Source of the DNA: a virus
Taxonomy: Duplodnaviria > Caudoviricetes
Strand: one strand, 5' to 3'
Virus record (IMG/VR): IMGVR_UViG_2508501067_000008
Span: 91-64,090 of that record
DNA: 64,000 bases
Below, piece after piece: positions 17,878-56,285 of the stretch. The position numbers and the translations under genes were made by a program. Below the pieces are notes generated by a model. It did no database searches and was not told the origin of the DNA. It saw nothing but the letters and a program-made list of their open reading frames with translations. Numbering within the stretch: the first letter of the stretch is position 1; every line of letters starts with the position of its first letter.

Positions 17878-19076
17878 GCGAATTTCACTCCCCGGATAAT
17901 GTTATCGGCGACCGCGGCGCCGGCGGGTCTGGCGGTCTTGATCTGACGACGCAGCGCAGCGTTACGGTACGCCAGGTACCCGGTAGCACCGGCGCCGGCT
18001 ACGGTACCGGCGATAGCGATATTCCGGATACGCCGGATATTGTCGGTTTTCTCGCCCCAGGTTTTCTCCCGGCGATCCCGTTTGCGGGAACCCGGAGCAT
18101 AGACGCGCGCGGAACGTCCGCGGGCGTCACGCACATCCCAACCCTTTTCGAGAGCGTCGGCGTAGGCGAACTGTGCAAGCCGAACCAGTCGCTCATGCGC
18201 CGCCATCGCGACAAGGAGCGGGTTCCGGCGGGCGGACAGACCTGTCTTCTGACGAAGCTTTTCCTTCCCTTCCGCCATGCGATGGGTGAGACGATCCATA
18301 CGGGCGCCGACAGTGTTTCCGGTTCGCGGCTTCTGCCCGTCGCGCTTCTTCTGCTGGCCGGAAGTGGCAAGGCTGTTGGCGAGCAACGGAACCCCGATCG
18401 CGGCGGTCAATGCGGCACGCTTGAACCATGGCTTGGTATAGAAGGGGCGTTCCACTTTCTTCCCGGCAGCCATGTCGCCAATATCTCCGGCAGCTTCACC
18501 CGCCCGGTTGACCCAAGGGGTGATGCGACTGGCTTTCCGGTACGCGGAAAGGGGGCTGGTTGAAACGCCGAAGGTGCCGTTGGAGAGACGATCCTGAAAG
18601 CGAACGAGAGCAAGACGCGCAGCCATGCCGCGGCGTACGCCGACCGTATTCTTGAGAGTTCTGGACTCGGCGATTTTTCTCAACCGATCCTTCTTTGCGA
18701 TCTCCTCGCTGGCGATCTGGACCTTTGATTTCACGCGGGGCGTCGCTTTGGGCTTTACCGAGACGGGCTGGTTGGCCGGGGACGCTTTGGGTCGAGGCGC
18801 CGGAACAACCGGGGGGACAGATGCGGACGCGGCAGGCTGGACTGTCGTACGCTGCGTGGCCGCGGCTCTGCGCTGCCGTGCCTCATGAAGAAGCTGGTAG
18901 AAACGCTGCTTCTTCGCCGAGGGGCGAGTACGCGCATACGCATAGAACCCGCCAACAGTCGCCGCGGCGCCTGCACCCGCCAGCACCTTGCCGAGAGCAG
19001 AACGCTGATACTCCGCGGGCTTCTCTGTTTCGGGAGGTGTGCGAAATTCGACGATACGACGGAGCGACGGCTTCAT
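17874..19076 (-). CDS. Basic modular protein with three Gly/Ala hydrophobic helices, possible internal/ejection protein
   Basis: 400 aa between portal and protease; repeated xxF motifs (IVEF, LVRF, LAQF, GVKF). Confidence 0.65.
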   Translation of the reverse strand: MKPSLRRIVEFRTPPETEKPAEYQRSALGKVLAGAGAAATVGGFYAYARTRPSAKKQRFYQLLHEARQRRAAATQRTTVQPAASASVPPVVPAPRPKASPANQPVSVKPKATPRVKSKVQIASEEIAKKDRLRKIAESRTLKNTVGVRRGMAARLALVRFQDRLSNGTFGVSTSPLSAYRKASRITPWVNRAGEAAGDIGDMAAGKKVERPFYTKPWFKRAALTAAIGVPLLANSLATSGQQKKRDGQKPRTGNTVGARMDRLTHRMAEGKEKLRQKTGLSARRNPLLVAMAAHERLVRLAQFAYADALEKGWDVRDARGRSARVYAPGSRKRDRREKTWGEKTDNIRRIRNIAIAGTVAGAGATGYLAYRNAALRRQIKTARPAGAAVADNIIRGVKFA

Positions 19077-20821
19077 GTGTTTCCAGGTGGAGCGTCAACC
19101 GGAGACTTCGTCCCGGGTAAATTTGCGGCCACCGCGACCGGCTGCGGGGTCGGCACGATTGTCTCGGCGATAACCGGGTCGAGCTCGAACACACCGACCA
19201 GAGTAGCGACAGCCTCCTCACGGGGAAGCTGGCCGGACGCAACTTTCTCGAGGATGTCGACCAGAGTCTTGGTGGCTCCTTCGCCGAGATCGCTGATCGT
19301 CGAGGTCGGGGCGGGATCGAGTGCCTCCTGCGCGGCGGCAAGCTGGTTGCTGGCATCCGGGAAGCGGCCCATCGCCACCATCTCGACAGGGACGCCCGCT
19401 GCGGCGCACTTGTTGCGGAGGATGACGACTTCCTTGATGAGCTGGTCGGTAAGGTCTTCGTAATCGTAGCCCTCTTCCCCGGCGATCTCCGACGCGCTCT
19501 TGAGCCCGGCCTGAAGGAGGGCGAGATTCGCATCAGTGTCATAGCCGGTATCGGCGGTAAGTGCTTTCCCGAACTGCCAGCGACCCCAGTCGAAATTCTT
19601 GTTGGGCGGAAGCTCGCCGACAGCAATGGCGTTGGCGAGCACAGCGCGTTTCACCCCGTCCAGCAGCGACGTGACGAGGATTTCCTGAAACCGGGCGAAC
19701 ATGCGCTGAAGCTGCTGGGCCTCGAGCCGGATAGTGGCCCCGCCAAACTTCGACATGTCGAAAAAGCCGTACGGGAGATTGAGGCCAAAGGCGATGTCCT
19801 TGAGAGCGGCCTCGATGTAAGCCATGAAGGCCCCGCTGGGACGGTTGCCCGTATTGAAAGGCGTGATATCCTCGTTGGGCCGAAGCCGCAGGAGCTTGTT
19901 GCCTTCGACTTTTTCGGTCGGGTTGCCATTGGCATCGCGGCTGACACCGTCCCACATACCAGCCGATCCCGCCCCGGATTTTGCAAGAGGGTCGGTGACG
20001 CGGATCACGCCTGCAATCGACGCCGCCCACTTGGCCGCGCCCCGCTCAAAACTGAACATCTCGTAGAGGTCGCGAGCCTGGGCAACCACCGGGGCAAGCC
20101 AGGAAGTGCCGCGGTACTCATCCGACCGGAGAGGCTTGCGGAGAAGAAAGAAATTCTTCGCATCCGCCGTGGCCTCGAACTCGTACCGGCTGGATTTGCG
20201 GTCACGTTTGAAGATGTCGTAACTCACGGGTTGCCCCAGGGAATTAAGCCGGATACCCTGAACGTAATCATCCTCCTGCTGGTTGGCGACGGTGTTAGGG
20301 TCTCCGATACGGTCGGCCTCGATGCACTGGAGCTGGAGTCTGGCGCCGTTGCGGACCAGGTAGAAGCCGAAGTCCCCGTCACGCAGCATCGACCGGAAGC
20401 CGACTTCGACCAGAGTGCGGAAATTGGTGCGCCCGGTAATGTCGGCATCCCGAGTAAACCATTTTTCGAGGTATGCCTCGGCCAGGGAATCCCAGGCAGG
20501 ATCGCCGGACTGGGACTGGTACAGGACCTGGGAACACACGTACTGGGCAACGCGGTCGAGAACTCCCCGGATGACGGGCATGTTGCGTTCGAGGTCCCGG
20601 GCTTCCCAGATCAGCTTGAGCCGGTCCATCGCCATGCGCGGGGTCTCGGAACTGGCATTTTTCGCCATGCCTCCGCTGCTGCCGCGCTTCACCCCCGGGT
20701 TGGCGGCATCGTACCCGAACAAGGTCAACTTCTCCCGGGCGATAGCCCGTTGCAACGCGTAGGTCGGAGCTACCGCGGCGAGAGCGCGTTCAAAAATGGA
20801 AGGCTTGGGATCAACGGGCAT
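19073..20821 (-). CDS. Portal protein (lambda gpB family)
   Basis: 582 aa; YDAA, EARDLERN, IEADRI, RGTSWLAPV motifs. Confidence 0.9.
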   Translation of the reverse strand: MPVDPKPSIFERALAAVAPTYALQRAIAREKLTLFGYDAANPGVKRGSSGGMAKNASSETPRMAMDRLKLIWEARDLERNMPVIRGVLDRVAQYVCSQVLYQSQSGDPAWDSLAEAYLEKWFTRDADITGRTNFRTLVEVGFRSMLRDGDFGFYLVRNGARLQLQCIEADRIGDPNTVANQQEDDYVQGIRLNSLGQPVSYDIFKRDRKSSRYEFEATADAKNFFLLRKPLRSDEYRGTSWLAPVVAQARDLYEMFSFERGAAKWAASIAGVIRVTDPLAKSGAGSAGMWDGVSRDANGNPTEKVEGNKLLRLRPNEDITPFNTGNRPSGAFMAYIEAALKDIAFGLNLPYGFFDMSKFGGATIRLEAQQLQRMFARFQEILVTSLLDGVKRAVLANAIAVGELPPNKNFDWGRWQFGKALTADTGYDTDANLALLQAGLKSASEIAGEEGYDYEDLTDQLIKEVVILRNKCAAAGVPVEMVAMGRFPDASNQLAAAQEALDPAPTSTISDLGEGATKTLVDILEKVASGQLPREEAVATLVGVFELDPVIAETIVPTPQPVAVAANLPGTKSPVDAPPGNT

Positions 20822-22132: not shown

Positions 22133-23974
22133 TCAACTTTTTATTGCGTTTTGTTGCGGTTCGTTGACCACATCCATCAAGCCCGTCGCCATCGCGGCCA
22201 CAAGAGCCTGCCGGAAACAGCTTCCCCAGTGGTCATCAGGGCGTTTCTGCGTCCACTCGACTTCGACAACCCCGTTCGCCTTTATCCGCTCCATACGCTC
22301 GTAGGCGGTGAGCTGCATCTTGTACTCGTGGAGCATGTCGCCGTCGTTCGGCAGTTCCAGTGACGGGCCAATCCCGCGCATGCAAGCCTCCGCACGATCC
22401 AGCATCGACGACTTGGAGAAAAGGAGCTGGCGGATCGGGCGGACACGGTTGGCCTGGTTGGTGCCAAGGAACGGATCGACAAAGGTCCATGTGTACGGCA
22501 GCCGCAGCTCGCCGAGACGATAGAACGGAGCCTTGTCGCCCTTCATCGCCTTCCAGGCATAGTTCCCGTCGGGCAGAACGCCCGATTCCATGACATAGCC
22601 ATAGACCTCCGAAGCCCAGTGGCCGCTGTCGATAACGATATTCTGGGCGGGCACGGCATACGTGGCAGCCAGACTGCGGAGTTCCTCCACGCTCCACGCC
22701 TTGCCCCACGCGAGCACCCGCTGGGCGCCGCCCGGCGCAAAGGCATGGACGGACCAGTAAAAGTGACGACCGCCCTTGCCCTGGACGTCGATGGACAGGA
22801 ACCGGCGGACTTCGTTGAAGGGCGCCGTGAAATCGCTGACCCGGTCGTCGATATAGCCCTCGCTGACCGCAAAGCGCAAACGGTCCTCCCAGGGGCGCCC
22901 GAGAGACTCGGTCACGAAGGTCTTCATGGGGTCATGATTCCCGTGATCGAGGTCCACCTGGGCCATGACGTACTTCTGGACGAGGTCACGCCACTTTACC
23001 CAGAACGGCAGCAGGGCGTTCCAGGTGTAGCTCTTCAGCTCCTTCGGGGCCTTCGGGTTGTGGCTCACCCATACGCCTTCCGACATGATCCGCCAACGGG
23101 CCTGCGGCTCGTCACGCTGCATGTATCCGCATCTTGGGCACACGTAACGAATATGGGGCGCCAGCGCGTCGAAGTCCCACCGGCCATCCTCGTCGACGAC
23201 CCCTGGCACATCCCGGAACTTCACGCATTTGCGGGTCTGCGGATGCTCCGCACGGACGTTCTCCCACTCGAGCGGCCCGCGGTAATCACACCCTGCCGGG
23301 TTCAGGCAGGGCACGTGCCAATGCTCCTGCGAGCCAGCGAGCCATTCGTTATGCAAAACGTCCTTCTCGTCACCGGGAGTCGAAAGGATCAGGATGCGGC
23401 TGTTCCACCAGGTGCGGACACGCATCTTCGCCATTGGCAGAGCCCACTTCGGCCAATTCCTGACCTCGTCGCAAAGCAGGTAACGACGACTGCGGGACTG
23501 GAGCTTGGCCTTGCTGTTGGAGCCCACGATCTCGAACAGCATCGTCGGGAAATAAATTTCCATCGACTTTGCCAAGGTGCGGCTGTCGGGGATTTGCCGC
23601 TTCACCGGCTGGCACATGTGGAAGGCGGGCATCAGGCGCTCGTTGGCAAACTTGAGTCCTTCCTCGTCGGACGCCGCGATCCACATCGCGGGTGACGGGT
23701 CCTCGGCGACGATCCAGTTCGCAAGGATCATTCCGGTCTCGGTCTTCGAGGACTGGGCGGAACACATGACCGTGATCTGCCGGACGGAGTTGTCGGCAAA
23801 CTCTTCCATAAGTTTTCGCACCCAGGGTGAATTTTCGGACCGCCACTTGCCCGGGATGTTGGAGACCGGAACTTCGTAGTGCTCCTCGGCCCATTTCCAC
23901 GGGGGGCGCGTGTCAGGAGGGCGCCAGGCGAGGGAGGCCGCCCGTGCGATGATGTTGGGCCGGTCGGCGCTCAT
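22133..23974 (-). CDS. Terminase large subunit (lambda GpA family)
   Basis: SAQSSKTE Walker A, LLCDEV Walker B, ILSTP, CxxC zinc motifs, IDVQ nuclease motif; start ATG 23974. Confidence 0.93.
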   Translation of the reverse strand: MSADRPNIIARAASLAWRPPDTRPPWKWAEEHYEVPVSNIPGKWRSENSPWVRKLMEEFADNSVRQITVMCSAQSSKTETGMILANWIVAEDPSPAMWIAASDEEGLKFANERLMPAFHMCQPVKRQIPDSRTLAKSMEIYFPTMLFEIVGSNSKAKLQSRSRRYLLCDEVRNWPKWALPMAKMRVRTWWNSRILILSTPGDEKDVLHNEWLAGSQEHWHVPCLNPAGCDYRGPLEWENVRAEHPQTRKCVKFRDVPGVVDEDGRWDFDALAPHIRYVCPRCGYMQRDEPQARWRIMSEGVWVSHNPKAPKELKSYTWNALLPFWVKWRDLVQKYVMAQVDLDHGNHDPMKTFVTESLGRPWEDRLRFAVSEGYIDDRVSDFTAPFNEVRRFLSIDVQGKGGRHFYWSVHAFAPGGAQRVLAWGKAWSVEELRSLAATYAVPAQNIVIDSGHWASEVYGYVMESGVLPDGNYAWKAMKGDKAPFYRLGELRLPYTWTFVDPFLGTNQANRVRPIRQLLFSKSSMLDRAEACMRGIGPSLELPNDGDMLHEYKMQLTAYERMERIKANGVVEVEWTQKRPDDHWGSCFRQALVAAMATGLMDVVNEPQQNAIKS

Positions 23975-24471
23975 TTGGCGGCATGGAGCGGGCGCGACGT
24001 CAACTGGCCGAGGGCCTCGACGATCTCCTCCCGGAGGATGCGCTCGGCATCCACCTCGGTCCGTCCGACGACCAGAGGGGCGCACGTGCCCGGAATCTTG
24101 CACAACACGGTCTTGGCCCGGATGACCAGATCGCCCACCCACGCCTCGACATCGACGTTTGCCGTGTATTCGTTGCGACGGACGTTCAGCTCGAATTCGA
24201 GTTTCTGGTTCTGCAACCGGAGACGCTCGACCTCGAGATTGCGTTTGTCGTCCGGACCCACGGTCGGATCGGTGAGGGATGCAAAGTTGGCGTTGATGAA
24301 CCCCTGCCACTCCTGGATGTGGTAACGCCCGTCCTTGGACCGCCCGGGATTCCCCTCCATCTTGAGGGCCTTCTGGATAATTTTCCGGTCCCGGGGCGGG
24401 GTCAGGTAACCGCCGAGCTCAGTCTGGTTTTTGGCGAAGGCAGGAACTTTGCCGGGTTTTCGTTTAGCCAT
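23971..24471 (-). CDS. Terminase small subunit (Nu1-like)
   Basis: N-terminal wHTH-like part, EVERLRLQNQKLEFEL coiled coil; directly upstream of TerL. Confidence 0.78.
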   Translation of the reverse strand: MAKRKPGKVPAFAKNQTELGGYLTPPRDRKIIQKALKMEGNPGRSKDGRYHIQEWQGFINANFASLTDPTVGPDDKRNLEVERLRLQNQKLEFELNVRRNEYTANVDVEAWVGDLVIRAKTVLCKIPGTCAPLVVGRTEVDAERILREEIVEALGQLTSRPLHAAK

Positions 24472-27039: not shown

Positions 27040-27043
27040 AACC

Positions 27044-27213
27044 CGCGGAATCACTCCGGCAATACCTGATACCAGAAACCCCGCATCAAACGATGCGGGG
27101 TTTTTCGTGCGCGGAAAACTCGCGGAATCACTCCCGCAATACTTGGTGCGGGGATTAACTCTCCCGCACGAATCCGCGGGTTGTGAAAACACGCGGAATC
27201 ACTCCCGCAATAC
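27044..27213 (+). repeat. Three 22-bp direct repeats CGCGGAATCACTCC(C/G)GCAATAC
   Basis: Copies at 27044, 27121 and 27192; copies 2 and 3 form hairpins with downstream TGCGGGA. Confidence 0.85.
27076..27105 (+). terminator. Intrinsic terminator after first early gene
   Basis: AAACCCCGCATC-AAAC-GATGCGGGGTTT then TT. Confidence 0.8.
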
Positions 27214-27574
27214 TAGATGCGGGAGAGAAGAGCGCGCAACGTGCTCTTTGCGTTACACACTGGGTTGAATCCCCGTAACGCACGCCACCCGATGACCGCC
27301 GCGATATTCGCGGGGTTATCCTAATCGAATTTCCGCACACGTTACCGTGTGCGACGGTCACCGCCGTGACCGGTAAATTGACGGCATTGCGCACAATGCG
27401 CTGAATGGTTGAGGGGCGGCCATAAACGTCCCGGTCTCGGCGAACTCACCGTCGTGTCGTGGTCCGCAGCTATGAATGTCGGGGTCTCACCGGTCTGCTT
27501 CCAAAAGACCGGTCAATTTCATCCTGTCTGCGATGTCCGGATAATTCCGTCCGGCTCGCTGTCACCAAACCACC

Positions 27575-28306
27575 ATGAGCAAACCCGCTCCCGTGGCGAT
27601 GGACAGCATCGCCAAACACGAACCGGCCGAGATTGCCGCGTTCGTCGCGACCGCCGCCGCACAGGCGAAGGTCACTTTTCTCAATGTCGCCAAGGGCATT
27701 GTTGCCCTCGAGGCCAAGGTCGGCCGTGACGAGGCGAAGGCTTTCTACAAGAAAGCCGGAGTCACGGAGCACACCCTCAAGAACGCCCGTCAGGCCGTGC
27801 AGGTCTGGGAGGACGTTGTCACCGCCAAACATGCCGACGAGGCGTGGTTCGACCAGCTCACCTACATGGACTGTGTCGTCATCAACCGCGCCATCCGCGC
27901 GGTGACGGTCAAACCGCTCGTCGAGCAGGGTCTCTTCAAGAAGCGTCCCGCCCTCGCCTACGGCCAGTTCGAGAAAGCTGCCGACGGATCGCCGGCCAAG
28001 GAGGAAACCCCGCCCCAGAAAGTGGCGAAACCCGCCAAGGCACCCGCCCCCTCGAAGAATGACGACGAAGGGGAGGAAACGACGCCACCCAAACAGGCGA
28101 AGCGTCCGGATGTCGCCGCGGTCGAGAAAATCGAAGCCGCCGAGAAAGCCGTCCTCGGTCTCGTCGACCTGGCGGATCAGGTCACGGCGGAACGGGTCTA
28201 CCAGCGCCTCCTCGCGACGCAACTCGCCGTCAAGATGGCGATGGAAAAGCGGTGGAAGCCCGTCCACGTCGAGGAGCTCCGTAACGTCAGCACCCGCGCG
28301 TCCTGA
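27575..28306 (+). CDS. Hypothetical early protein
   Basis: 243 aa, strong phage-like codon bias, A/C-rich leader. Confidence 0.75.
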   Translation: MSKPAPVAMDSIAKHEPAEIAAFVATAAAQAKVTFLNVAKGIVALEAKVGRDEAKAFYKKAGVTEHTLKNARQAVQVWEDVVTAKHADEAWFDQLTYMDCVVINRAIRAVTVKPLVEQGLFKKRPALAYGQFEKAADGSPAKEETPPQKVAKPAKAPAPSKNDDEGEETTPPKQAKRPDVAAVEKIEAAEKAVLGLVDLADQVTAERVYQRLLATQLAVKMAMEKRWKPVHVEELRNVSTRAS

Positions 28307-28647
28307 TGCGCGTCCTCATCCTCCGTGCAACGCTCCCGGCATTGCACGGCCTTCTCGGAGTGCCGCTTTTCGTCATCGGACAGAGACCGCCGTGGCGGCT
28401 GCCGTCATGGCTCGTCTGGAACCCCGGCCCCGGCGACAAACCGCCGGATGATCCTTTCCGCGCCAGTCACGACCCTCCGGCGCGTTTGCGTAGAATAACA
28501 ATCAACCTTTGCCGTCCCGCACGTGGTTGGAACGTGGTCAGGGTCGACATCTCTCGAAAAGACAGACAGGCCCCGCATCGCCTTGGTAGGTGCGGAACGG
28601 TAGCGAAGACAAAGGGTCGACAACCGGACCCGCTACCGTTGAATACC

Positions 28648-28710
28648 GGCGTTCCCCGATGGTCGGGCAGGATGATAGCCCTGCGCGGTTCGATTCCGCG
28701 GTCGCCGCCA
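28648..28710 (+). ncRNA. Compact tRNA-like RNA (T-arm plus CCA end)
   Basis: CGCGG-TTCGATT-CCGCG T-arm then GTCGCCGCCA; two upstream hairpins; 5' end uncertain. Confidence 0.45.
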
Positions 28711-28791
28711 CTTTCCCGACCGGCGAGGTTCAACCTCGGGTGCGCGCACCTGACAACAACAACGTGGGGCCTGCGTGGGCACCCTTCTTCT

Positions 28792-28872
28792 GCGGCCGAC
28801 GCTCGCGTTGGTTCGAAGCCGGCACCTGAACCGTGTCGTGATCAAGCGGAGGTTCGATTCCTCCCGGCCGCA
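28792..28872 (+). tRNA. Atypical tRNA-Phe(GAA)-like
   Basis: Perfect acceptor GCGGCCG/CGGCCGC plus A73, D-loop GG, GGCAC-CTGAACC-GTGTC anticodon arm, GGAGG-TTCGATT-CCTCC T-arm; non-canonical A8, G14, C37; no encoded CCA. Confidence 0.7.
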
Positions 28873-28981
28873 TTCCTTTTCCGACTCAGCCTCGGCGGGC
28901 TGCCACGTCCCGCGGCAACAGAACCCTACGTGTTGGCCCGAACGGGTACGCGGGCAAACCGAAGACACCCACCAATTTTTC

Positions 28982-29077
28982 GAGGATCGGCAGACGGCGC
29001 CCTATCTGCGGTCAGGTAAACTGGCCCAGCCAGACAGGCTGTGTCAGTAGTCGGTTCGAGTCCGACCGTCCTCACCA
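28982..29077 (+). tRNA. Atypical class-II tRNA-like (Leu-UAA by position)
   Basis: GAGGATC/CGTCCTC acceptor plus ACCA, 5-bp D-stem, GGTCA-GGTAAAC-TGGCC arm, CAGCC/GGCTG variable arm, GTCGG-TTCGAGT-CCGAC T-arm. Confidence 0.58.
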
Positions 29078-29239
29078 CTTTCGTTCAATTCGGGCATTCC
29101 CGTGCCTGGCCTGAGCCTGCTTTCGAAACCGAACAGGACAGGCACTTGAGACCCGCGGGGCGCAGCCTGCGAAAGCGCGCAAAAGAAATCAACAGGCCGC
29201 CCGCCGGAGCGTCATCCGGCACCACCTTTCCACCACGCC

Positions 29240-31356
29240 ATGAGCACAACCTCCCGTCAGCGTACCGCCAAACAACCTCGCCGCGTTCGCGGTGCCCATC
29301 CCGGCGACAAGCCGGTCCCGTCCGGTCCGAACCGGCACCTGATTCGTCGCAAGGCAGTCGGCCTGTTCCGCCCCGCCGATGCCGACCAGTCGCCGGGTGG
29401 CGCCTTCGGCAAGCCGGATCACAAACGCGCCGATAGCGACAGGCGCATCGTGCGCCGCAACGCCCGCAAGCAACTCGCGTTGCTGGGCGTGTCATCCGGG
29501 AAGTGATTCCCGTTCGGTTCGGTTATCGTACCCGATTTTTTAGATACGATGCACAAAACTGCAACCCTTCACCTCGTCGCATTGCTCCTGCTGCTCGCCC
29601 TGTTCGGCGTGGCGGGAGCATTCGACTGTCCGCTATGACTATCGTCAAACTCGATAAAGCCGCTGTCGTCTCGATCTTCAACCACGCCAGCAGCCAGCAA
29701 GAGTATCTCGAAGGTCTCTACCGGCTTGTAATCCCGGAGTGGGAAACCGTCGAGCAAGTTACCGAATACCCTGTGTGCTCCCGGGACACATGGATGGAAA
29801 TCTGTAAACTGGCTCGATCCTTCGACGAGAACCTTAACAAGAGCCGCACCCACAACAACAACAAGATCATGCCAGGTGGCGCGTGGATGAATTCGGGTTT
29901 CGGCACAGCCAACGATGGCGAACTCGCCCTGTGGGAAGTCCGGCCACCCGATCCAGCGAAAATCCTCCGCAAACAACCCGTGTCGGTATGAACCCGCGCA
30001 TCCACCTCGAAGCCTGCCGGATCGTCCGCGAGCGGAAGGCGCCGGATTACCGTGCCGCCTGCGCCATGATCGCGAAACGTCGTCGGTATCAACCGCAACC
30101 CGTCCAACCGCGCCTTGTGCGTATGCCCTACCGTGACGACTGACTATCTTTCAATCCCGCTGCGTCGACGCCTTGAATTGGTGAAGAAGCGTACGGATGT
30201 CGACAGTTGCATCGGCGACTGGACGGCCCGGCGCCACACCATCCGCTATTTCCTCGACAGGAAATCCGGCTCGGGTGGCGAGCCGTGGCAATGCGGTGGA
30301 TGCACCGTCCGATTCTGCGAACAGGCCGACGATGTATTCCCCGAGCTTCGTTTCGCCCACAAGGTCAATACGTACCTCCGGCACACCGGCTGGTATGTGG
30401 ACAACCTCCATGACGAAACCACCGTCGGCGTCGTCGTGACGCTTCCGGGCCGCCGCGGTTTCGCAGCCGCCACCACCGACCCGTGGAACTTCGGCATCGA
30501 GTCGATGACCGGCCCCCTGATCGTCGAGATCGGCGAGACGTACGCCGAAGAAAGCGATGCCGCCCGGGCTGCCGACCTGCTCGCCAGAAAGACGGCCTGC
30601 TACACCCGCATCGCGAAGTTGCAGGAAAACTACTGGGAGGCCGTGCGGTGAAGGGAAATTTTCCCGATAGGTCACGCAGAAACCAGCTCCACAATTCGCC
30701 GGTTATCGTAACCGAGTATTGAATACGATGAACGAATCCAAACCCAAGCTTGACAACGGGCTTGAACAGTGGTGCAAGGAATACTGCCCCACCCTGCCGG
30801 CCCGCATCGAGGCAGTCGTTGCCGAATGGGGCATCAGCGTCACCGATCAGGGACACGCCCGCGATCTCCTGTTGGAACATGTCCGCCAGTCCGTCGCCAC
30901 AACTTCATGACACCCGATCAATACCGGAAACGCCTTCTGCCCTTCGTTCGCCTCCTGTTCGACACCCTGTCTCCCGCGCAGCAACGGCTTATCGCCGCCA
31001 AACATAAGGACGCGCCCGAAGACGTTCGTGAGGTCCATAATCCGGAAAACGTAAGCGCGGACCAACTACCGGATGGGTATCGGTTTCTCTACATCGACGA
31101 ACTGAACAACACGGATAGTATGCCCTTCGCCAAAATCTGGGTCGAGAGCGATGATAGGTGGGGTGACCCTATACCTGCCCGGGAACGTTATCTCGACAGG
31201 TTCACCTACGCCATCCCCATCAACCTCCCCGACAAAGAATCTCCGGCGTCATCCGACGCCGCCACACCAACCACATCAAAGGACAACATGCCCGCACCCG
31301 TACCGCCCAGATCCGTCAGGAAATCCGCCATCCAGATACTCGACGAGGGGGCCTGA
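29240..31356 (+). CDS. Array of small early hypothetical genes (29240-29506, 29549-29638, 29635-29991, 29988-30143, 30133-30651, 30728-30910, 30907-31356)
   Basis: Tightly packed, ATGA/GTGA-coupled ORFs; 29549-29638 is a 29-aa hydrophobic peptide found by hand. Confidence 0.6.
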
Positions 31357-32771
31357 ACTGAGCCAGGCCACCGCCGACGTCACCGTCAAACATTTCGGCA
31401 CCGCCATCGTGCTGCCCGCGTCGCCGACGCCGATGTCGGCCGGTGAAGCCGTCGAGCACCTCAAGCGTCTTCAGAAACTCGGAGAACGCGTCGTCGGAGT
31501 AAACGAACTGGTCAAGGTCTACCCGTTCGACGGTGCCGTCGCCTTCATGAAGGCAATGCAGCGCAAGTTCGGGTGGGCGCAACCTGTGCCGACGCCCGGC
31601 TTCTTCGGCGATCGTGCTCCTGCCACCGTCAGTATCGAATCCGGTCCGAACGAGACCGCGACGATCTTCTGGGGTCGCTTCGAGATTCCCGGTGTCGACG
31701 GTTATGTCGAATGCGGGTTCTCCCGCACGGACGACAACGAACCGGTCTTCGAGATCGGCGGCGAAGTGAAGCAGGCGCACCTTGCGGTGGTTGCGGAACT
31801 CGCCCAGCTCACTCGGCAAATCGCCCGTGACGAATCCATCTATCGCGGCAAGGCTCTTCGACTCCGGATCAACGAGGACGGCGACATCAACGTCAACGCG
31901 GCCCCGGGATTCATCGACCTGCGCAACCGCACGGAACTGATCCTCCCCGATCTCGTCGACGCCTCCGTCCGCGCCAACCTGCTCACGCCCATCGAGCGCA
32001 CCGACGCCTGTCGTCGTGCCGGCATTCCGGTGAAACGCGGTGTGATTCTCTCCGGACCTCCCGGTACAGGCAAAACGCTCGCCGCTTTCGAGGTCGCCCA
32101 CAAGTGCATCGAGAACGGATGGACGTTCATTCTCGTTCCGAAGTGCAAGAGCCTCGCTGATGCGATGCTGTTCGCCACCCGGTATGCTCCGGCGGTGGTC
32201 TTCGCCGAGGACATTGACCAGATCACCTCCGGTGATCGCAACGAGGCGTTCAACCACCTCCTGAATACCGTCGACGGCGTCAACACGAAGAATCAGGACG
32301 TGATGCTGGTCTTCACGACCAACCATCTCGGCAACATCGAACGTACGATGGTCCGCCCCGGCCGTATCGACGCCATCATCGAGTTTCCGCCACCCGATCA
32401 TGCCACCATCGAGCGTTTCCTCCGCTACTACGGCGGCAGTCTGATCGAACCGGACATGAGCCTGATGCGGTCGTGTGACGCCCTCGAGGGCGCCATTCCC
32501 GCCATCGTCCGGGAAGCGGTCGAACGTGCCAAACTCTACGCCCTCTCCCGTGGCGCCGATCCGGATCACATCCGGCTCACGGATGACGACATTCTCGTCG
32601 CCGTGAAGACAATGGAGGCACACACAGTTCTTCCGCAGCAAGCGGGAGAAGGTCGTGACGCCGGAGGAACAGGTCGGGATCGCTCTCAAGGCGCTGCTGA
32701 CCGCCGGTACGGTTCCCACGGACGAAATCAAGTCCGACACCAAACGGATCGTCGCCCGGGTTCAGGCGTAA
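31288..32771 (+). CDS. AAA+ ATPase (FtsH/CDC48-like), apparently with two frameshifts
   Basis: GPPGTGKT, VVFAEDID, LLNTVDG, TTNH, RPGRID; reading frame breaks at G5 (31347-31351) and (CA)4 (32619-32626). Confidence 0.82.
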
Positions 32772-32789
32772 TCGCATATACACTACACC

Positions 32790-32824
32790 GCCCGTATCGT
32801 GATTATACGATACGGGCTTTATTT
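32790..32824 (+). terminator. Intrinsic terminator after AAA+ gene
   Basis: GCCCGTATCGT-GATTAT-ACGATACGGGC then TTTATTT. Confidence 0.7.
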
Positions 32825-32835
32825 CCGTTCCTGTC

Positions 32836-33741
32836 ATGAGCACCAACCTCGCCAAGAAAGTCCTGTGCGTAAACCTGCGCACAACGTGCCTCGGGTCCAC
32901 GGTCACCGATCCGATCCTCACCGCCGACCTGCGCCAGAAAACCGGCGCCGAGGAAGGCGCTGTCCGCGCCACCAAGAAGATTCTGGAGGACGCGACCAAA
33001 CCGATGCGGAAATTGCGTGCCGAACTCGGTCGCTATATCCGCAGTGTCACGCTCCCCGGTATCAGTGACGATCTACGTATCGTCACCCCGAAACGTCTGG
33101 AGGAAATCCGCCAGAAGATCGCCGACTACGAAGCCCGGGACGCGGACCTTGTTGCCGAACTGGCGGACAACTACCAGACCCACAAGGATGCGGACAAGGT
33201 GCGTCTCGGTACGGCTTACGACGAGACGCTCTACCCGCCGGTCGAAAACCTCCCGGCCTTCTTCACGCTCCGGCTCACGGTCTGCGACTTGCCGGCCGGC
33301 GACTACTTCCGCGTCGAAGGTCTTACCGAGGAGGCCATCCAGAAGATGAAGAACGAGCACGCCAAGATGCTTGAAGCCGTCTCGGCGACCGCGAAAAACG
33401 AGGTCCACAAGAAACTCGTCGGACTCATCCAGCACATCGCCGACAAACTCACCGATCCCGACGCGAAGAAATTCTACGACTCCACGTTCACCAACCTGCA
33501 CGAATACCTCGCGCAGGTTCCGGACCTCAACATCACCGGCGATCCGCAACTGGAGGAGATGCGCAAGGAGGCGCTTGAAAAACTCAGCTTCACAATGGAG
33601 CAGATCAAGGCGTCGGCCATCCTGAAAGAGCAGGCTGCCGCGGCGGCGAAAGACTTCCTCTCCAAGTTCGGCGCCAGCAACCGCAAGGTCCTCGTGATGC
33701 CGCCGACCTCGGCGGAAAACGACACGCCGGCTGCTGCCTGA
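32836..33741 (+). CDS. DUF3150-like phage protein
   Basis: TLPG...LRIV, RLGTAYDETLYP, VPDLNITGDPQLE pattern recalled from this family. Confidence 0.55.
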   Translation: MSTNLAKKVLCVNLRTTCLGSTVTDPILTADLRQKTGAEEGAVRATKKILEDATKPMRKLRAELGRYIRSVTLPGISDDLRIVTPKRLEEIRQKIADYEARDADLVAELADNYQTHKDADKVRLGTAYDETLYPPVENLPAFFTLRLTVCDLPAGDYFRVEGLTEEAIQKMKNEHAKMLEAVSATAKNEVHKKLVGLIQHIADKLTDPDAKKFYDSTFTNLHEYLAQVPDLNITGDPQLEEMRKEALEKLSFTMEQIKASAILKEQAAAAAKDFLSKFGASNRKVLVMPPTSAENDTPAAA

Positions 33742-33777: not shown

Positions 33778-34599
33778 ATGCCTGCCAAAAAGAAGACCAA
33801 AAAGAAAACACGCAGCGCCAGGAAGGCGCCAGCCGCCACTACTGCTATCGTCGAGGCAACCCCGGTGCAGCCGCCTGCGCCAATCCTCTCCACCGTCCGT
33901 CCGCACACCTGGACGAACCATGGCGACGAGGTTCTCATTCTCAAACGGGTCAACCCAGACCGGACTGCCCGCGGCGGGTTCAAATATCCGGCCGGCGTCG
34001 GATCGAAGGTCGAGCCGGAATCGTGGGATTCGTCTCCGTCCTGCGGCGAGGGTCTCCATGGTTGGCCGTGGGGCTTTGGTCTCGGAGAGGGCATGAACTA
34101 CGATCCCCTCGAGGACATCTGGCTCGTCCTCGGCGCCAAGCCGGAGGATGTTGTCGGCGAACTCGAAGGCGGACAGAAGTGCAAATGTCGTCACGCCACG
34201 ATCCGGTACGAAGGGTGTTTTGCCGGGGCGCTCGCCCTTATCCGGGAAGGCTTCCACGCCTGCATCGTCGAGATGTCCAAGGTGGTCATTCCACCCGGCG
34301 GTGCCCCTTCTCCGACCGCTTCCGACCGATACAGGGCTTACCTCGCGGCCTCGGGTGGCTACTCGCAACTCGCGGCCTCGGGTGGCTACTCGCAACTCGC
34401 GGCCTCGGGGCGAAATTCGATCGCCGTCTCCTCCGGCCTGAACAGTCGGGTGAAAGTCGGTGAAAACGGCGTCTTCGCCCTCTGCTACTGGGCCGGTGAC
34501 GACAAGGGCTACGAAATCCTCGTCGGCAAAGTGGGAGTCGATGGCATCAAGGCCGATACGTGGTACGTCGTCCGGGACGGCAAAATCGTCGCCGAATGA
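33778..34599 (+). CDS. Phage protein with AASG repeats (DUF7666-like)
   Basis: CGEGLHGWPWG, KCKC, repeats, C-terminal GVDGIKADTWY. Confidence 0.65.
   Translation: MPAKKKTKKKTRSARKAPAATTAIVEATPVQPPAPILSTVRPHTWTNHGDEVLILKRVNPDRTARGGFKYPAGVGSKVEPESWDSSPSCGEGLHGWPWGFGLGEGMNYDPLEDIWLVLGAKPEDVVGELEGGQKCKCRHATIRYEGCFAGALALIREGFHACIVEMSKVVIPPGGAPSPTASDRYRAYLAASGGYSQLAASGGYSQLAASGRNSIAVSSGLNSRVKVGENGVFALCYWAGDDKGYEILVGKVGVDGIKADTWYVVRDGKIVAE
34342..34409 (+). repeat. 27-nt tandem coding repeat, 2.5 copies
   Basis: CTCGCGGCCTCGGGTGGCTACTCGCAA, encoding LAASGGYSQ. Confidence 0.9.
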
Positions 34600-35066
34600 G
34601 CACCCTCACCCACCTTACCGGCGACGCCACCCGTCCCGTCGGACCCGGTTCGAAAATCATCGTCCACTGCTGTAACGACATCGGTGCGTGGGGCGCGGGC
34701 TTTGTGCTCGCGCTCTCGCGCCGGTGGCCGCAACCCGAAACGGAGTATCGCACCTCGGCACGTGTATCCGAACTCGTTCTCGGCGAGATACAACTCGTGC
34801 CGGTGGAACAGGACATCACTGTCGTCAACCTTATCGGTCAGCACGGCACCGGGCACCGTAATGGCGTCCCGCCAATCCGGTACGAAGCTATCTCGGAGGG
34901 ACTGTCAAAACTCGCCGTACACGCCAGGCACCATGGCGCTTCCGTTCACATGCCCAAAATGGGCGCCGGCCTCGCCGGCGGTGACTGGGATCAGATCGAG
35001 GAGATCGTCCGCAACACCCTGTGCGCCGCCGGGATTCCCGTCTTCGTCTACACCTTTGATCCATAA
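34596..35066 (+). CDS. Macrodomain (ADP-ribose hydrolase)
   Basis: GDAT, IVHCCN..GAWGAGFV, MPKMGAGLAGGDW. Confidence 0.88.
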   Translation: MSTLTHLTGDATRPVGPGSKIIVHCCNDIGAWGAGFVLALSRRWPQPETEYRTSARVSELVLGEIQLVPVEQDITVVNLIGQHGTGHRNGVPPIRYEAISEGLSKLAVHARHHGASVHMPKMGAGLAGGDWDQIEEIVRNTLCAAGIPVFVYTFDP

Positions 35067-51856: not shown

Positions 51857-52470
51857 TGCCCACCCTCCCGCAAATGAGCAAACTGACTCCGCAACAGATC
51901 GATCGCGCCCTCAACATCGGCGAAAAAGTCGTCGACCTCGCCGTCGACGTATGGCGCACCCGCAAGAAGCGGGTTCAGGAGAAACCCGTCCGTAATAAAT
52001 CGCAACAATTTCTGAGAAAATGAAAACCCTCGTTCGCGCAACATTGTCTAAAGCTGCCGAGACCCTCGTCGGGCATGGAGGAGTTCGCAACCGGCATTTC
52101 AGCCGGGCCGCAGGTATTACCGGGAAACGCGCCCGTAAATTTCTAAAACAGGCGCGGCGTACTCTCCGGGAACGTACACCTGCCGTCGGCACCCTCAAGG
52201 AAGCAAAGTCATGATTGCAGCCCTCTCCTCCGAGGAAATCCTCCTGATCAAGTACGCCATCGGTGCGATCCTTCCGGTGATCGTCCTGCTGGCGATCGTA
52301 CGTAACTGATGAAGTCGTTGCGGTACAATGCAGATTTGTTCGCACTCCGGGACGACAAGGCGCTCGCCCGTGCAAACGAATGCGCCCTTCGCGTCGGCAC
52401 CGAGGAGGCCCGCCGGCTCCTGGCCGCTATCCGCACCCGTCACCGCATCCGCGATCTGAGTCTTCGCTAA
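51856..52470 (+). CDS. Four very small coupled genes (51856-52023, 52020-52214, 52211-52309 TM peptide, 52309-52470)
   Basis: Hand translation; overlapping stop/start codons. Confidence 0.5.
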
Positions 52471-52472
52471 CC

Positions 52473-54703
52473 ATGTCAGTAAGTCTTTATGATTGGCAGG
52501 AGCCTTCCGCCCTGACGCTACAGCAATCGCTACTCAGCCACAACGTGGCGGCGGACGGTAGCGAAATGGGCTGCCACGCCCGAGGGGCGTTAATCTTGAT
52601 GTATGACGGGGCACTGAAACGGGTGGAAGATGTGACTGTCGGGGACGCTCTCATGGGGTGGGACAATACGCCCCGATACGTAGTGTCCCTCGCACGTGGC
52701 AGGTCGGCCATGGCCCGCATTTGCCCTACGAAGGGTGAACCGTTCGTGGTCAATTGTGACCATATGTTGACGTTGGTCCAGACCAACACATCCCTGTGCC
52801 GTTCGATGCCCAGGCACAACGGCCGGATCGTGGATGTTTCGGTCAAGGACTATCTGACGTGGAGTCGGGAGTGGAAAACGCTGCATCTGCTCTTCCGGGT
52901 AGGAGTGGAGCTTCCGGAACAAGACCTCCCCGTAGACCCGTATTTTTTGGGGGTTCTGTTGGGAGACGGGTCATTCCGGGGCTATTACGCTCAGGTTTCA
53001 AAACCTGACCCTGAACTCGAGGAGTACCTTCAGATGCTCGGGATTCCGTTTACCCGGACGCAGACGGGAAATCGTTGCCCCAATTTCTATTTGAAATCCC
53101 CTCCCCTGCATCACGCATTGGCTCATCTCGGACTGTGGGGAAAGCTGTCCGGGGAGCGGTTCATCCCGGACGTGTACCGCCGAAGTTCGCGGCATCAACG
53201 ACTGGCTCTTCTGGCCGGACTTCTGGATACTGATGGGCATCTCACGCATACGGGCGGGTACGATTACGTTTCACAGTCCAAAGACCTTGCAACTGATGCG
53301 GCGTTTGTCGCCCGCAGTCTGGGACTAGCCGCGTACGTCCGACCCTGCTGGAAACGGGCCCAGACGGGGAATGGAGGTATCTATTACCGCGTTTCAATTT
53401 CCGGGGATTGTGCCGTAATCCCTTGCCGCATACCTCGGAAGAAAGCGTTACCTCGAGCCCAGAAAAAATCGGTGCTTCGGACTAGCTTCACTGTGGAGTC
53501 GTTGCCTGAAGACGATTTTTTCGGGTTTTCTCTTACGGGCGATGGCAGGTATCTGATGGGAGACTTTACCGTAACCCATAATACTGGCAAGACGATCAAG
53601 GCGTGTGTCGTCGCCAAGCGCCTCGGTCGCCCGCTTTTCGTGGCATGCCCCAAGTCGGTTATCCCCGACTGGCTGGATTGGGCTGAACGGGTTGGCGTAC
53701 CCTGCATCGCGGCCAATTATGACCGTATCCGCGCAGGCAAGACGCCGTACGGAGAATGGCAAACCAAGGGGAAGCTGTTCCAGTGGACGCTGCCGCCGGA
53801 CACGCTTCTTGTTTTCGATGAAGCCCACCGTCTTGGCGGAATCGACACGCAGCAGAGCCGTCTTCTGGTAGCGGCGAAGAATCAGGGGTACACACACCTG
53901 CTCCTCTCCGGCACCCTTATTGAAAATCCTCTCAAGTGTCGGGCTATCGGGTACTCGCTTGGACAGCACACCCTGCTCAATTTCTGGCAATGGGCGAAAC
54001 GACATGGAGTTCGTGAAGGCGTATTCGGGATGGAGTTCCGTCCGAAGAACGAGACCCCTGCCCAGGTCATGGAACGGATTCGTGCCGCCCTTGGCGACCG
54101 GTTTACCCGCATCCGCAAAGCCGACGTGCCCGGCTTCCCCGTAAAGCAGGTGATTCCGGTATACGTCCAGACCGACGATATGCCGGAGGACGAGACCCTC
54201 GACGGAGGGCGCTACGGGTACGCAGCCCGCATGCACGTGGAATTGCTGAAGGTGCCTGGCCTCGTCGACCGGACCCGCGATCTTGTCGATCAGGGGCAAA
54301 GCGTGGCCGTTTTTGTCAACTACCTCGATACGCTGAACGCCCTCCTCAAGGAGCTTCCCGACGCGGCGGTCATACGGGGTGGTCAGAGCTCCACCGAACG
54401 CAGCCGGAACATCGACATGTTCCAGACCAACGCCCGGCACGTCGTGCTGGTCATGATGCAGGCAGGCGGCACCGGGGTGAGTCTCCACGACCTGCACGGG
54501 CGACCGCGCTCCTCCATTATCTGCCCGGGCAACTCGGCGCTCGATTTCCTGCAAGCCGTCGACCGCATTCACCGCGCCGGGGCCAGATCGCCCGCCACCG
54601 TCTACGTAGCTCTTGCGAGCGGCGTGCCTGTCGAGCGTCGAATCCGTCACCGGATCGAGAGCAAACTGACGAACTTGTCGGCCTTGAATGACGCCGACTT
54701 TGA
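52473..54703 (+). CDS. SF2 (SNF2-like) helicase containing an intein; true 3' end probably near 54703
   Basis: G|TGKT, VFDEAH, LSGT, QAVDRIHRAG; as given the frame reads through to 56285. Confidence 0.85.
52572..53582 (+). mobile_element. Intein (337 aa) with LAGLIDADG homing endonuclease
   Basis: Starts CHARG, ends VTHN followed by T; FLGVLLGDGS and LLAGLLDTDG motifs; inserted in Walker A. Confidence 0.92.
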
Positions 54704-54726
54704 GAACTTTCAACCCACAACAAAAA

Positions 54727-55077
54727 ATGCCGGAACCTGCTGTAATAAATCGAAACAAATTGCAACCGCTGTCGCTGCTGGACCTGTATCTGAAAGTTCA
54801 GGAACTTCTTCGCCAGAAGAGCCCTGCGTATCCGACCAATGTCCTGTCGGTGGAGCTGGATACGCATACGGACCCGGAGGGGCGGGCGCAGGTGACGGTG
54901 GAGACCCTGACGGAGCACGAGCTTCAGGCGGACATTGCTGTTCTGGTGGACCCGGCGCCGAATCCGCCGTCCAATCCACAACCGGCGCCATCGCCGGTTG
55001 TGGCTCCCAAACAGCGTCAGCCACGGGTTTCGAGCATTCGGGCGGCAGTGGAGAAGGGAGGGAACCAGACATGGTAA
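54727..55077 (+). CDS. Hypothetical protein nested in alternative frame of the long ORF
   Basis: Protein-like LSLLDLYLKVQELL...VSVELD; A-rich leader; stop overlaps nuclease ATG. Confidence 0.6.
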   Translation: MPEPAVINRNKLQPLSLLDLYLKVQELLRQKSPAYPTNVLSVELDTHTDPEGRAQVTVETLTEHELQADIAVLVDPAPNPPSNPQPAPSPVVAPKQRQPRVSSIRAAVEKGGNQTW

Positions 55078-56285
55078 GGATTCTCGTCCCCCCTCCCCCG
55101 TCCGAACCGATCCCGGCCCAGCCTGCGGAAGTGCCGGGGGCGACCGGCAACCACAAGGTGCGCACCCATGCCCGGTGCAGTCCGTCCAAACTCAAAAACC
55201 TCGAGATTTGCCCCAGCTACGAAGGGGACGACGAAGCACCTGTCCATCCCGTCACCCTTCGCGGCACGGCGATGCACGAAGCCCTGGAGACCGGTGACAA
55301 CAGTCACCTCCTCGACGACGAGGAATTGCGCCTCGTCACCATGTGTCGCGAGTTTCTTGCCGAGGAAGTCGCCGCCGCCGAGACCGTCATCGACGAACAG
55401 CACCTCAAGACCCACGACAAGGATGTTCAGGGTTTTGTGGACAAGCTCCTCATCTTCCCGAAAAACCCGACGACCGGGCGACGGAAGGCGAAAATCCGGG
55501 ACTTCAAGATGGGCTGGAACGCGGTCGACACTCCGGATCAGAACCCGCAGGCGATCGCCTATACTCTGGCGGTCTTCCTCCAGTGGGAAGACGTTGACGA
55601 GGTTGATTTCGCCTTCCTGATCCCGCGTCTCGACCTGGTCCTTCAGCATACGTTCACCCGGGCGGATGTGCCGGCCCTCAGACTCCGCGTCAGCCTGATT
55701 GCCGACCGTGTGCGCAAGCTCGCGGGCAAGGAGTTCAATCCCGTCAACGAGAATTGCCTGTACTGCGGTCGCAAAGCCACCTGCCGCCCATGTATCGACA
55801 AGTCCCTGACGATCGCACGTGGGTATGACGATGGAAGCAAACTCCCCCTCCCTGCCACGCTTGATCCCTCCCAGCTAACCGATCCCCAGCAGATTGCCTA
55901 CGGCCTCAATGCGGCCTCCGTGCTGGAGAGCTGGATTGAACAGATGCGCCGTCATGCGCTGCGCTTCCGTCAGGAGATCGGCGTCGAAGTCCCCGGCTAT
56001 GATTACATCGAACGGCAGGCGAAACGTGAGATCGCCAATCCCGTCGGTGCCTGGGAAATCCTGAACAAGGAGTTCGGAGTTACCCAGGAGGAATACCTCT
56101 CTGCCTGCAAAGCGTCCATCACCCAGCTTGAGAAAGTGGTCAAGGACCACGCTCCGCACGGCGCGAAGGACAAAGCCGCCGAACGCTTCACCGACCGGCT
56201 TCTCGACGAGGGTTTCCTCACCCGGGGCGCGTCGTTTCACGTGCTGCAACGCAGCAAGAAAAAGAAGGCCCTGAAAGCGGCCTGA
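55071..56285 (+). CDS. Cas4/AddB-like PD-(D/E)XK exonuclease with Fe-S cysteines
   Basis: SPSK..CP, GTAMHE, GFVD, DFKMG, QAIAY, CLYC...C. Confidence 0.85.
   Translation: MVRILVPPPPSEPIPAQPAEVPGATGNHKVRTHARCSPSKLKNLEICPSYEGDDEAPVHPVTLRGTAMHEALETGDNSHLLDDEELRLVTMCREFLAEEVAAAETVIDEQHLKTHDKDVQGFVDKLLIFPKNPTTGRRKAKIRDFKMGWNAVDTPDQNPQAIAYTLAVFLQWEDVDEVDFAFLIPRLDLVLQHTFTRADVPALRLRVSLIADRVRKLAGKEFNPVNENCLYCGRKATCRPCIDKSLTIARGYDDGSKLPLPATLDPSQLTDPQQIAYGLNAASVLESWIEQMRRHALRFRQEIGVEVPGYDYIERQAKREIANPVGAWEILNKEFGVTQEEYLSACKASITQLEKVVKDHAPHGAKDKAAERFTDRLLDEGFLTRGASFHVLQRSKKKKALKAA

Follow-up and report, generated by a model that had tools for sequence, protein, structure and literature searches.

The DNA studied here is a window of 64 kb, comprising nearly all of the 64,090-nucleotide (nt) IMG/VR provirus record IMGVR_UViG_2508501067_000008, and the element in question is a non-coding island on its + strand that carries three units resembling transfer RNA (tRNA) genes. 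Late genes occupy the - strand from 1 to about 24.3 kb, including those for a lambda-type portal (19073-20821) and a GpA-type large terminase (22133-24310), and an early/replication operon spans 24.9-62 kb on the + strand. This operon encodes an Ant-like protein, two AAA+ ATPases, an ATP-dependent ligase, a methyltransferase, an intein-bearing helicase, PolA and a primase-like protein, and a tyrosine integrase gene lies at the right end of the record. The island sits about 4 kb inside the early operon and about 34 kb from the integrase. Its features are collected in Table 1, in which lengths of stems are in base pairs (bp) and GC3 is the G+C content at third codon positions.

Table 1. Elements of the non-coding island, by position in the window
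Feature	Position	Strand	Remark
Non-coding island	28307-29239	+	930 nt, between early genes 27575-28306 and 29240-29506; GC3 signal lost inside, resumes on both sides
CGGCGAC, perfect distant complement of the unit 1 3' strand	28431-28437	+	paired in the centroid of the 293-nt fold, z = -1.1
Perfect 10-bp hairpin AACGGTAGCG/CGCTACCGTT, inner GGGTC/GACCC stem	28596-28605 / 28631-28640	+	about 11 such in the window against about 4 expected
Unit 1, candidate mini-cloverleaf, 62-64 nt	28647-28710	+	closing stem, two hairpins, T-arm
Unit 1 core: T-arm CGCGG-TTCGATT-CCGCG (28684-28700), 3' strand GTCGCCG and CCA	28684-28710	+	one of three exact GGTTCGANTCC
T-arm-like hairpin CGAGG-TTCAA-CCTCG, 5-nt loop	28724-28738	+	spacer after unit 1
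Unit 2, tRNA-Phe(GAA)-like	28792-28873	+	ARAGORN default call (28791-28873)
T-arm-like hairpin GTTGG-TTCGAAG-CCGGC	28807-28823	+	D-arm position of unit 2
Unit 3, class-II tRNA-Leu(UAA)-like, 96 nt	28982-29077	+	ARAGORN at -ps
Hairpin GTGCCTGGCCTG/CAGGACAGGCAC (GTGCCTG/CAGGCAC)	29102-29145	+	3' of unit 3; enclosing 123 nt fold with z = -0.11

Coding status of the gap

The codon-position G+C signal is strong in the genes on either side of the island (27575-28306 and 29240-29506 / 29503-29991), with 0.75-0.85 at the third position and about 0.4 at the second, and it is gone between 28306 and 29240. An open reading frame (ORF) of 237 codons, 28306-29019, runs across the gap. This ORF found no match in Pfam or PHROG, and a search of 5.8 billion proteins returned only the ORF itself. 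The gap is non-coding and the 237-amino-acid (aa) ORF is spurious, as an earlier note on this DNA had supposed of the ORFs across this span. The opposite reading, that the span is translated as this ORF and that its RNA-like features are incidental, can draw on the open frame itself, on an ATG that overlaps the stop of the preceding gene, and on the fact that gene callers recorded the ORF in the source assemblies. It is nevertheless hardly credible, since the codon-position signal is missing here though both neighbouring genes have one, no protein other than itself resembles the product, and the frame would have to cross three T-arms, a coincidence on a scale of 1 in 10^5. A tandem 12-nt repeat, GCGCGTCCTGAT / GCGCGTCCTCAT, was also seen at 28296-28319, where it covers both the stop of gene 27575-28306 and the start codon (ATG) of the spurious ORF.

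Clustering of T-arm motifs

The two strands of the window (128 kb) together contain the T-arm consensus GGTTCGANTCC exactly three times, at 28687, 28851 and 29053. All three copies are on the + strand, are spread over 377 nt, and lie each inside a perfect 5-bp stem. Hairpins with a TTCRA loop and a stem of at least 5 bp are concentrated at the same place, with five in 28684-29066 against seven in the other 63.6 kb of the + strand. Two of these five (28724-28738 and 28807-28823) are additional to the three T-arms, where about 0.04 would be expected. The clustering is therefore highly non-random. The two additional hairpins look like further T-arm or tRNA relics; alternatively, they may represent a repeated functional module.

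Despite these T-arms, the standard tRNA models respond poorly. RF00005, the Rfam tRNA model (gathering cut-off 29 bits), gave no match at E <= 10 against the whole record, with 3 candidates scored. The best Rfam scores of the three units, 24.9, 23.6 and 17.3 bits, all came from tRNA-Sec, whose cut-off is 47. ARAGORN called unit 2 at its default setting, added unit 3 at -ps, and reported unit 1 only at -ps80. The presence of T-arms together with the poor scores indicates that all three units are tRNA-derived and clearly non-canonical. Three tRNA-like units had been proposed previously; three tRNA-derived units are present, all oriented with the early operon. What marks a phage tRNA cluster, namely tandem units on one strand, non-coding DNA of a phage operon and at least one call by a standard finder, is found at this locus.

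Units 2 and 3

Unit 2 has a perfect 7-bp acceptor (7/7), A73, C37 and a variable region of 10 nt, and its CCA is not encoded. The 24.9 bits from tRNA-Sec belong to this unit, which has no match to RF00005, and its fold gives z = -1.4. In unit 3 the acceptor pairs at 6/7 positions, A73 is present, CCA is encoded, and the anticodon loop GGUAAAC has G32/G33 in place of U33. The unit 3 cloverleaf is the minimum free energy (MFE) structure, with z = -2.57, and just 2.5% of controls with a shuffled 5' part match it. The discriminator A73 is the one expected for Phe and Leu tRNAs. As to whether the units might supplement decoding, TTC makes up 71% of Phe codons and TTA 2% of Leu codons among 18 phage genes, figures that speak for the phage side only. 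Both units retain all stems, and their deviations fall at positions 8, 14, 32/33 and 37; with such changes they may either decode in an unusual way or be mimics that do not decode. The best-supported reading is that units 2 and 3 are tRNA-type genes that have diverged while their structure was maintained.

Unit 1

The smallest unit had been described as a cloverleaf of roughly 63 nt with an 8-nt loop in the anticodon position. All of its elements are present where they had been placed. The closing stem CGGCG/CGCCG (28647-51 / 28703-07, 5 bp) encloses a hairpin in the D position (CCCGA-TGG-TCGGG, 28655-28667, 5 bp, 3-nt loop), a hairpin in the anticodon position (CAGG-ATGATAGC-CCTG, 28668-28683, 4-bp stem, 8-nt loop) and the T-arm, with 0 linker or variable nucleotides between the three hairpins. 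GTCGCCGCCA follows the T-arm and ends at 28710. The seven bases GTCGCCG come after the T-stem (28696-28700) and CCA succeeds them at once; therefore the unit has no discriminator, or its acceptor is of only 6 bp. The local 5' strand (28647-28653) pairs with this 3' strand through five Watson-Crick pairs plus U:U and U:G. Measured against the canonical tRNA, the T-arm (5-bp stem, 7-nt loop, G53-T54-T55-C56-R57-A58) is there, and neither the acceptor (7 bp, one discriminator base, then CCA or trailer) nor the anticodon arm (5-bp stem, 7-nt loop with U33, variable region of at least 4 nt) is.

It was the fold as a whole that did not stand up. The 62-nt four-way junction is the MFE structure of an isolated 70-mer and makes up 43% of its ensemble, but its energy is no better than that of dinucleotide shuffles (z = -0.36). 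In an 82-nt context the cloverleaf is not the MFE structure, and even the T-arm is broken. When the T-arm and 3' end were kept and the 5' part was shuffled, 73% of controls folded at least as well, and 25% of all controls kept the T-arm and paired at least five acceptor bases upstream. The GC-rich 3' strand has at least five possible partners, at 28392, 28431, 28590, 28647 and 28721, none of them specific. The alternative 5' partner that the earlier note had named, CGGCGAC at 28431, is accordingly real and perfect, but it is rivalled by the other four. The T-arm and the 3' strand with CCA are the only well-supported part of unit 1, and its 5' half looks no different from GC-rich sequence drawn at random.

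The detection programs gave a similar picture. At the 80% threshold (-ps80) ARAGORN reported a poor 'Asp(GTC)' at 28631-28710, which uses another 5' strand and pairs 5/7 of the acceptor. In Rfam, unit 1 scored 17.3 bits with tRNA-Sec and 15.3 bits with the Deinococcus Y RNA, both far under the cut-offs.

Spacers, hairpins and larger folds

The span had also been viewed as a structured cassette of stacked hairpins. The listed elements, the 10-bp stem, CGAGG-TTCAA-CCTCG, GTGCCTG/CAGGCAC and the pyrimidine tracts behind all three units, are all present, but their folding energies do not distinguish the span from shuffled sequence, and the idea of a structured cassette was not upheld. Folding of the spacers 28711-28791, 28874-28982 and 29078-29200 and of the stretch 28500-28600 is at the level of shuffles (z from +0.08 to -0.9). 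The units are set far apart, by spacers of 81 and 108 nt. Perfect hairpins of 10 bp or more are over-represented: the window has about 11, that at 28596-28640 among them, where Markov shuffles give about 4, a 2.5-fold excess or so. The motif CCACTTTC trails both unit 1 and unit 3, and seven copies occur in the window where 2.25 are expected. The remaining hairpins are probably for the most part incidental self-complementarity of non-coding DNA of 62-66% G+C; the exceptions beyond chance are the 10-bp stem and the extra T-arm-like hairpins.

A different account of unit 1 is that it belongs to a longer structured RNA, about 175-320 nt in length, which has the T-arm at its 3' end and is closed by CGGCGAC at 28431, by GTGGCGGC at 28392 or by a helix at 28583/28745. 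Such an RNA could be a tRNA with an intron or insert, a molecule like transfer-messenger RNA (tmRNA), or a Y-RNA-like RNA with a tRNA-like module. The perfect 7-nt complement at 28431 is indeed paired in the centroid of the 293-nt fold, and a 12-nt helix (28583-94 / 28745-56) appears in both the MFE structure and the centroid of the 185-nt fold. These folds are, however, no better than shuffles (z = -1.1 for 293 nt and z = -1.5 for 185 nt), and a GC-rich 7-mer is expected to find a complement within 300 nt in about 6% of cases, by an estimate from base composition. A tmRNA was found neither by ARAGORN at a lowered threshold (-m -ps) nor by Rfam, and the third acceptor pair of unit 1 is G-C whichever candidate partner is used, so that G3:U70 is absent. 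Group I/II introns, tmRNA and Y RNA gave no match near any cut-off.

Of these candidates, the bacterial Y RNA deserves a closer comparison. The tRNA-like modules of YrlA and of D. radiodurans Yrn1 are substrates of RNase P and of the CCA-adding enzyme (PMC4201824). Unit 1 shares with such a module a T-arm with a canonical loop, a short stem-loop in the anticodon position, the lack of a variable arm and a short closing stem. The Y RNA model RF01053 aligned to it at 28647-28707 through model positions 27-89 only, with 15.3 bits against a cut-off of 80 and E = 5, a weak local alignment confined to the tRNA-like portion of the model. The Ro60-binding helix is unmatched in unit 1 and the TROVE/Ro60 gene (PF05731) is absent from the record, and identity as a Y RNA was rejected on these grounds. 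Taken together, a larger structured RNA is a very improbable explanation of unit 1.

Comparative searches

When 28300-29240 was searched by blastn against 50,697 phage records, no similar DNA was found. No close relatives of two neighbouring proteins, used as single queries, were detected in IMG/VR, and the exact T-arm/acceptor strings of all three units had no match there. The spacing pattern of the three T-arms was recovered at 61 loci in JGI metagenomes, which have the T-loops alone in common. Within the island, recent duplication among the units and hidden copies in the spacers were likewise rejected, as T-loops alone align.

The AAA ATPase encoded at 31151-32839 has many homologues, the closest (P0002-P0005) at 60-77% identity, and 86 loci were fetched by means of this gene. 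A tblastn search with nine flanking proteins gave no match in the 147 fetched loci; therefore the AAA ATPase travels separately, and its 86 loci provide no synteny. In three of them (L003, L011 and L081) the AAA ATPase homologue is preceded, at no more than about 2.3 kb, by tRNA genes on its own strand. Five others contain units in which both the T-arm and the 7-bp acceptor are perfect (L047:6150-6245, L048:1914-1985, L058:9580-9685, L060:7842-7932 and L080:629-744), which were missed by ARAGORN at default and by the Rfam tRNA model, have non-canonical anticodon arms and in some cases encode CCA. Non-canonical tRNA-type genes therefore recur in other phages, and the island is not unique in that respect.

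Several further observations were made in these loci. An RF00005 match of 30.6 bits at L081:7049-7199, just upstream of the AAA ATPase homologue, extends over 151 nt, so the tRNA gene holds an insert of about 80 nt. At L050:325-1052 at least six tRNA genes are densely arrayed, including four serine isoacceptors (UGA, GGA, CGA, GCU), and several genes of this array are under the Rfam tRNA cut-off. Two giant viral contigs of 488 and 499 kb carry a tmRNA (L056:11379-11728 and L078:10286-10637) with the identical tag ANSNTLRMAA, and L056 also has two tRNAs with the anticodon CTA, which are calls of the amber suppressor type.

Other features of the early operon

Upstream of gene 27575, another non-coding stretch without GC3 periodicity was noticed at 27040-27570, with a perfect 12-bp hairpin at 27076-27105. 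Downstream of the island, a short ORF at 29550-29639 (MHKTATLHLVALLLLLALFGVAGAFDCPL), placed between the basic 88-aa ORF 29240-29506 and a protein-atlas gene start near 29635, resembles a signal or lipoprotein-type peptide. The early gene 34560-35066 has a weak match to the Macro domain (E = 0.0012, under the cut-off) and, judged by this match, could be a candidate ADP-ribose-removing counter-defence protein. The helicase gene at 52380-56285 encodes a 1301-aa helicase/DUF2800 (PD-(D/E)XK) protein, in which Hint and LAGLIDADG domains near the N-terminus constitute an intein with a homing endonuclease.

A probable phage tRNA island

The reading that we favour, and to which we give about an even chance, is that a temperate phage here carries, within its early + strand operon, a tRNA island of divergent sequence, with unit 1 as a vestige. 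The likeness is to the phage tRNA clusters of T4, T5 and mycobacteriophages, some of which include pseudo-tRNA members: here too the units are in tandem, on the same strand, in non-coding DNA of an early or middle operon, and one of them (unit 2) is called by ARAGORN at default. The differences are that no unit reaches the Rfam tRNA model, that the spacers are long, and that unit 1 has neither a specific 5' half nor an anticodon loop of 7 nt nor any variable region. Phage tRNA islands that include degenerate members are a known kind of feature, and the present one is unusually divergent.

Phage tRNA clusters are cut from a polycistronic precursor by host RNase P. In the present phage, no terminator-like site of the + strand was found within 28300-29240, i.e. 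between the upstream and the downstream gene, so co-transcription and excision from one precursor are plausible, which agrees with the earlier suggestion of a single precursor cut into several RNAs. The island would be co-transcribed with its flanking early genes, and by analogy the tRNA-shaped parts may be excised by host enzymes, with RNase P acting at the 5' side and RNase Z/E and exonucleases at the 3' side. Unit 1 would be the most reduced member, either the vestige of a tRNA gene or a 3' tRNA fragment. It would have kept the perfect T-arm and the 3' acceptor strand with CCA. The specific 5' half has probably been lost, and with it a 7-nt loop in the anticodon arm, the variable region and the geometry of a canonical discriminator.

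Several observations weigh against a history of simple decay. All three T-arms are perfect, and the acceptors of unit 2 and unit 3 pair at 7/7 and 6/7 positions, despite scores below that required by RF00005. Uniform neutral decay should hit T-arms and acceptors too, so the acceptor/T-arm half may be selected in all three units; this argument is weakened because the units were ascertained through their T-arms. The CCACTTTC trailer shared by units 1 and 3 hints at a common context for 3' processing, and the mini-cloverleaf of unit 1 is the MFE structure once the upstream 10-bp hairpin has formed.

The fragment could also have been acquired as such: unit 1 might be a 3' tRNA fragment gained by recombination, never a complete gene in this phage, and could be either an old attachment-site relic or the product of illegitimate exchange with a host tRNA gene. 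The part of tRNA genes from T-arm to CCA is commonly duplicated at the attachment (att) sites of tyrosine integrases. Unit 1 likewise preserves only this part convincingly, the phage encodes a tyrosine integrase, and a 28-nt alignment links the 3' half of unit 1 to that of unit 3. Unlike a copy at an att site, however, it lies inside an operon, far from the integrase and beside two fuller tRNA-like units, and the record is trimmed at gene boundaries, with the real att sites outside. Acquisition by recombination is thus regarded as improbable.

Possible tRNA mimics

The earlier note had suggested an array of tRNA decoys or tRNA-like processing signals. Read in this way, the three units, the minimal unit 1 included, would be functional tRNA mimics that do not decode and serve as decoys or as punctuation of messenger RNA (mRNA). 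In this scenario the acceptor/T-arm half alone would be conserved, from which RNase P, RNase Z and the CCA-adding enzyme would make stable small RNAs, and these would either titrate host defence nucleases that target tRNA or mark cuts in the early polycistronic mRNA. Three perfect T-arms and the intact acceptors of units 2 and 3, none of which RF00005 recognises, are consistent with it, as are the non-canonical anticodon loops (C37 in unit 2, G32/G33 in unit 3, 8 nt in unit 1), the trailer common to units 1 and 3, the location in an early operon without a terminator, and the likeness to the unrecognised T-arm/acceptor units of other phages with a homologous AAA ATPase.

Phage tRNAs with altered anticodon loops reportedly evade PARIS and retron effectors, in some cases only by proposal. 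Such tRNAs have also been proposed or shown to evade anticodon nucleases, and mimics would fit current hypotheses on how phage tRNAs oppose these enzymes (PMC10264068). The island units resemble them in being phage-encoded, in belonging to an early region and in deviating in the anticodon loop, a likeness drawn from the phage sequence alone. The published tRNAs, however, are otherwise canonical decoders, i.e. working tRNAs and not decoys, whereas the island units also deviate at the tertiary-core positions 8 and 14. Against mimicry stand, in addition, the chance-level cloverleaf of unit 1, the absence of any tRNA-repair or tRNA-modifying enzyme or nuclease partner among the phage genes scanned, the failure of the searches to find homologues that would show conservation, and the bias from finding the units by their T-arms. 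Functional mimicry by all three units is on balance unlikely, though not remote; the specific proposal of an island made up of non-decoding mimics, the 62-nt unit a minimal one among them, which would act early in infection as decoys for host defences that target tRNA or as RNA punctuation, is distinctly unlikely.

Implications

If tRNA mimics were indeed maintained in this operon, they would represent small RNAs of phages that exploit the machinery of tRNA processing but do not decode, and the units in L047, L048, L058, L060 and L080 would be placed in the same overlooked class. Mimics of this kind would bear on how phages counter tRNA-cleaving defences, a step that the present evidence stops short of. 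If unit 1 is only a vestige, as in the favoured reading of a divergent phage tRNA island, the value of the finding lies mainly in annotation: the 237-aa ORF is spurious, and in its place the early operon carries a tRNA-type island overlooked by standard models.

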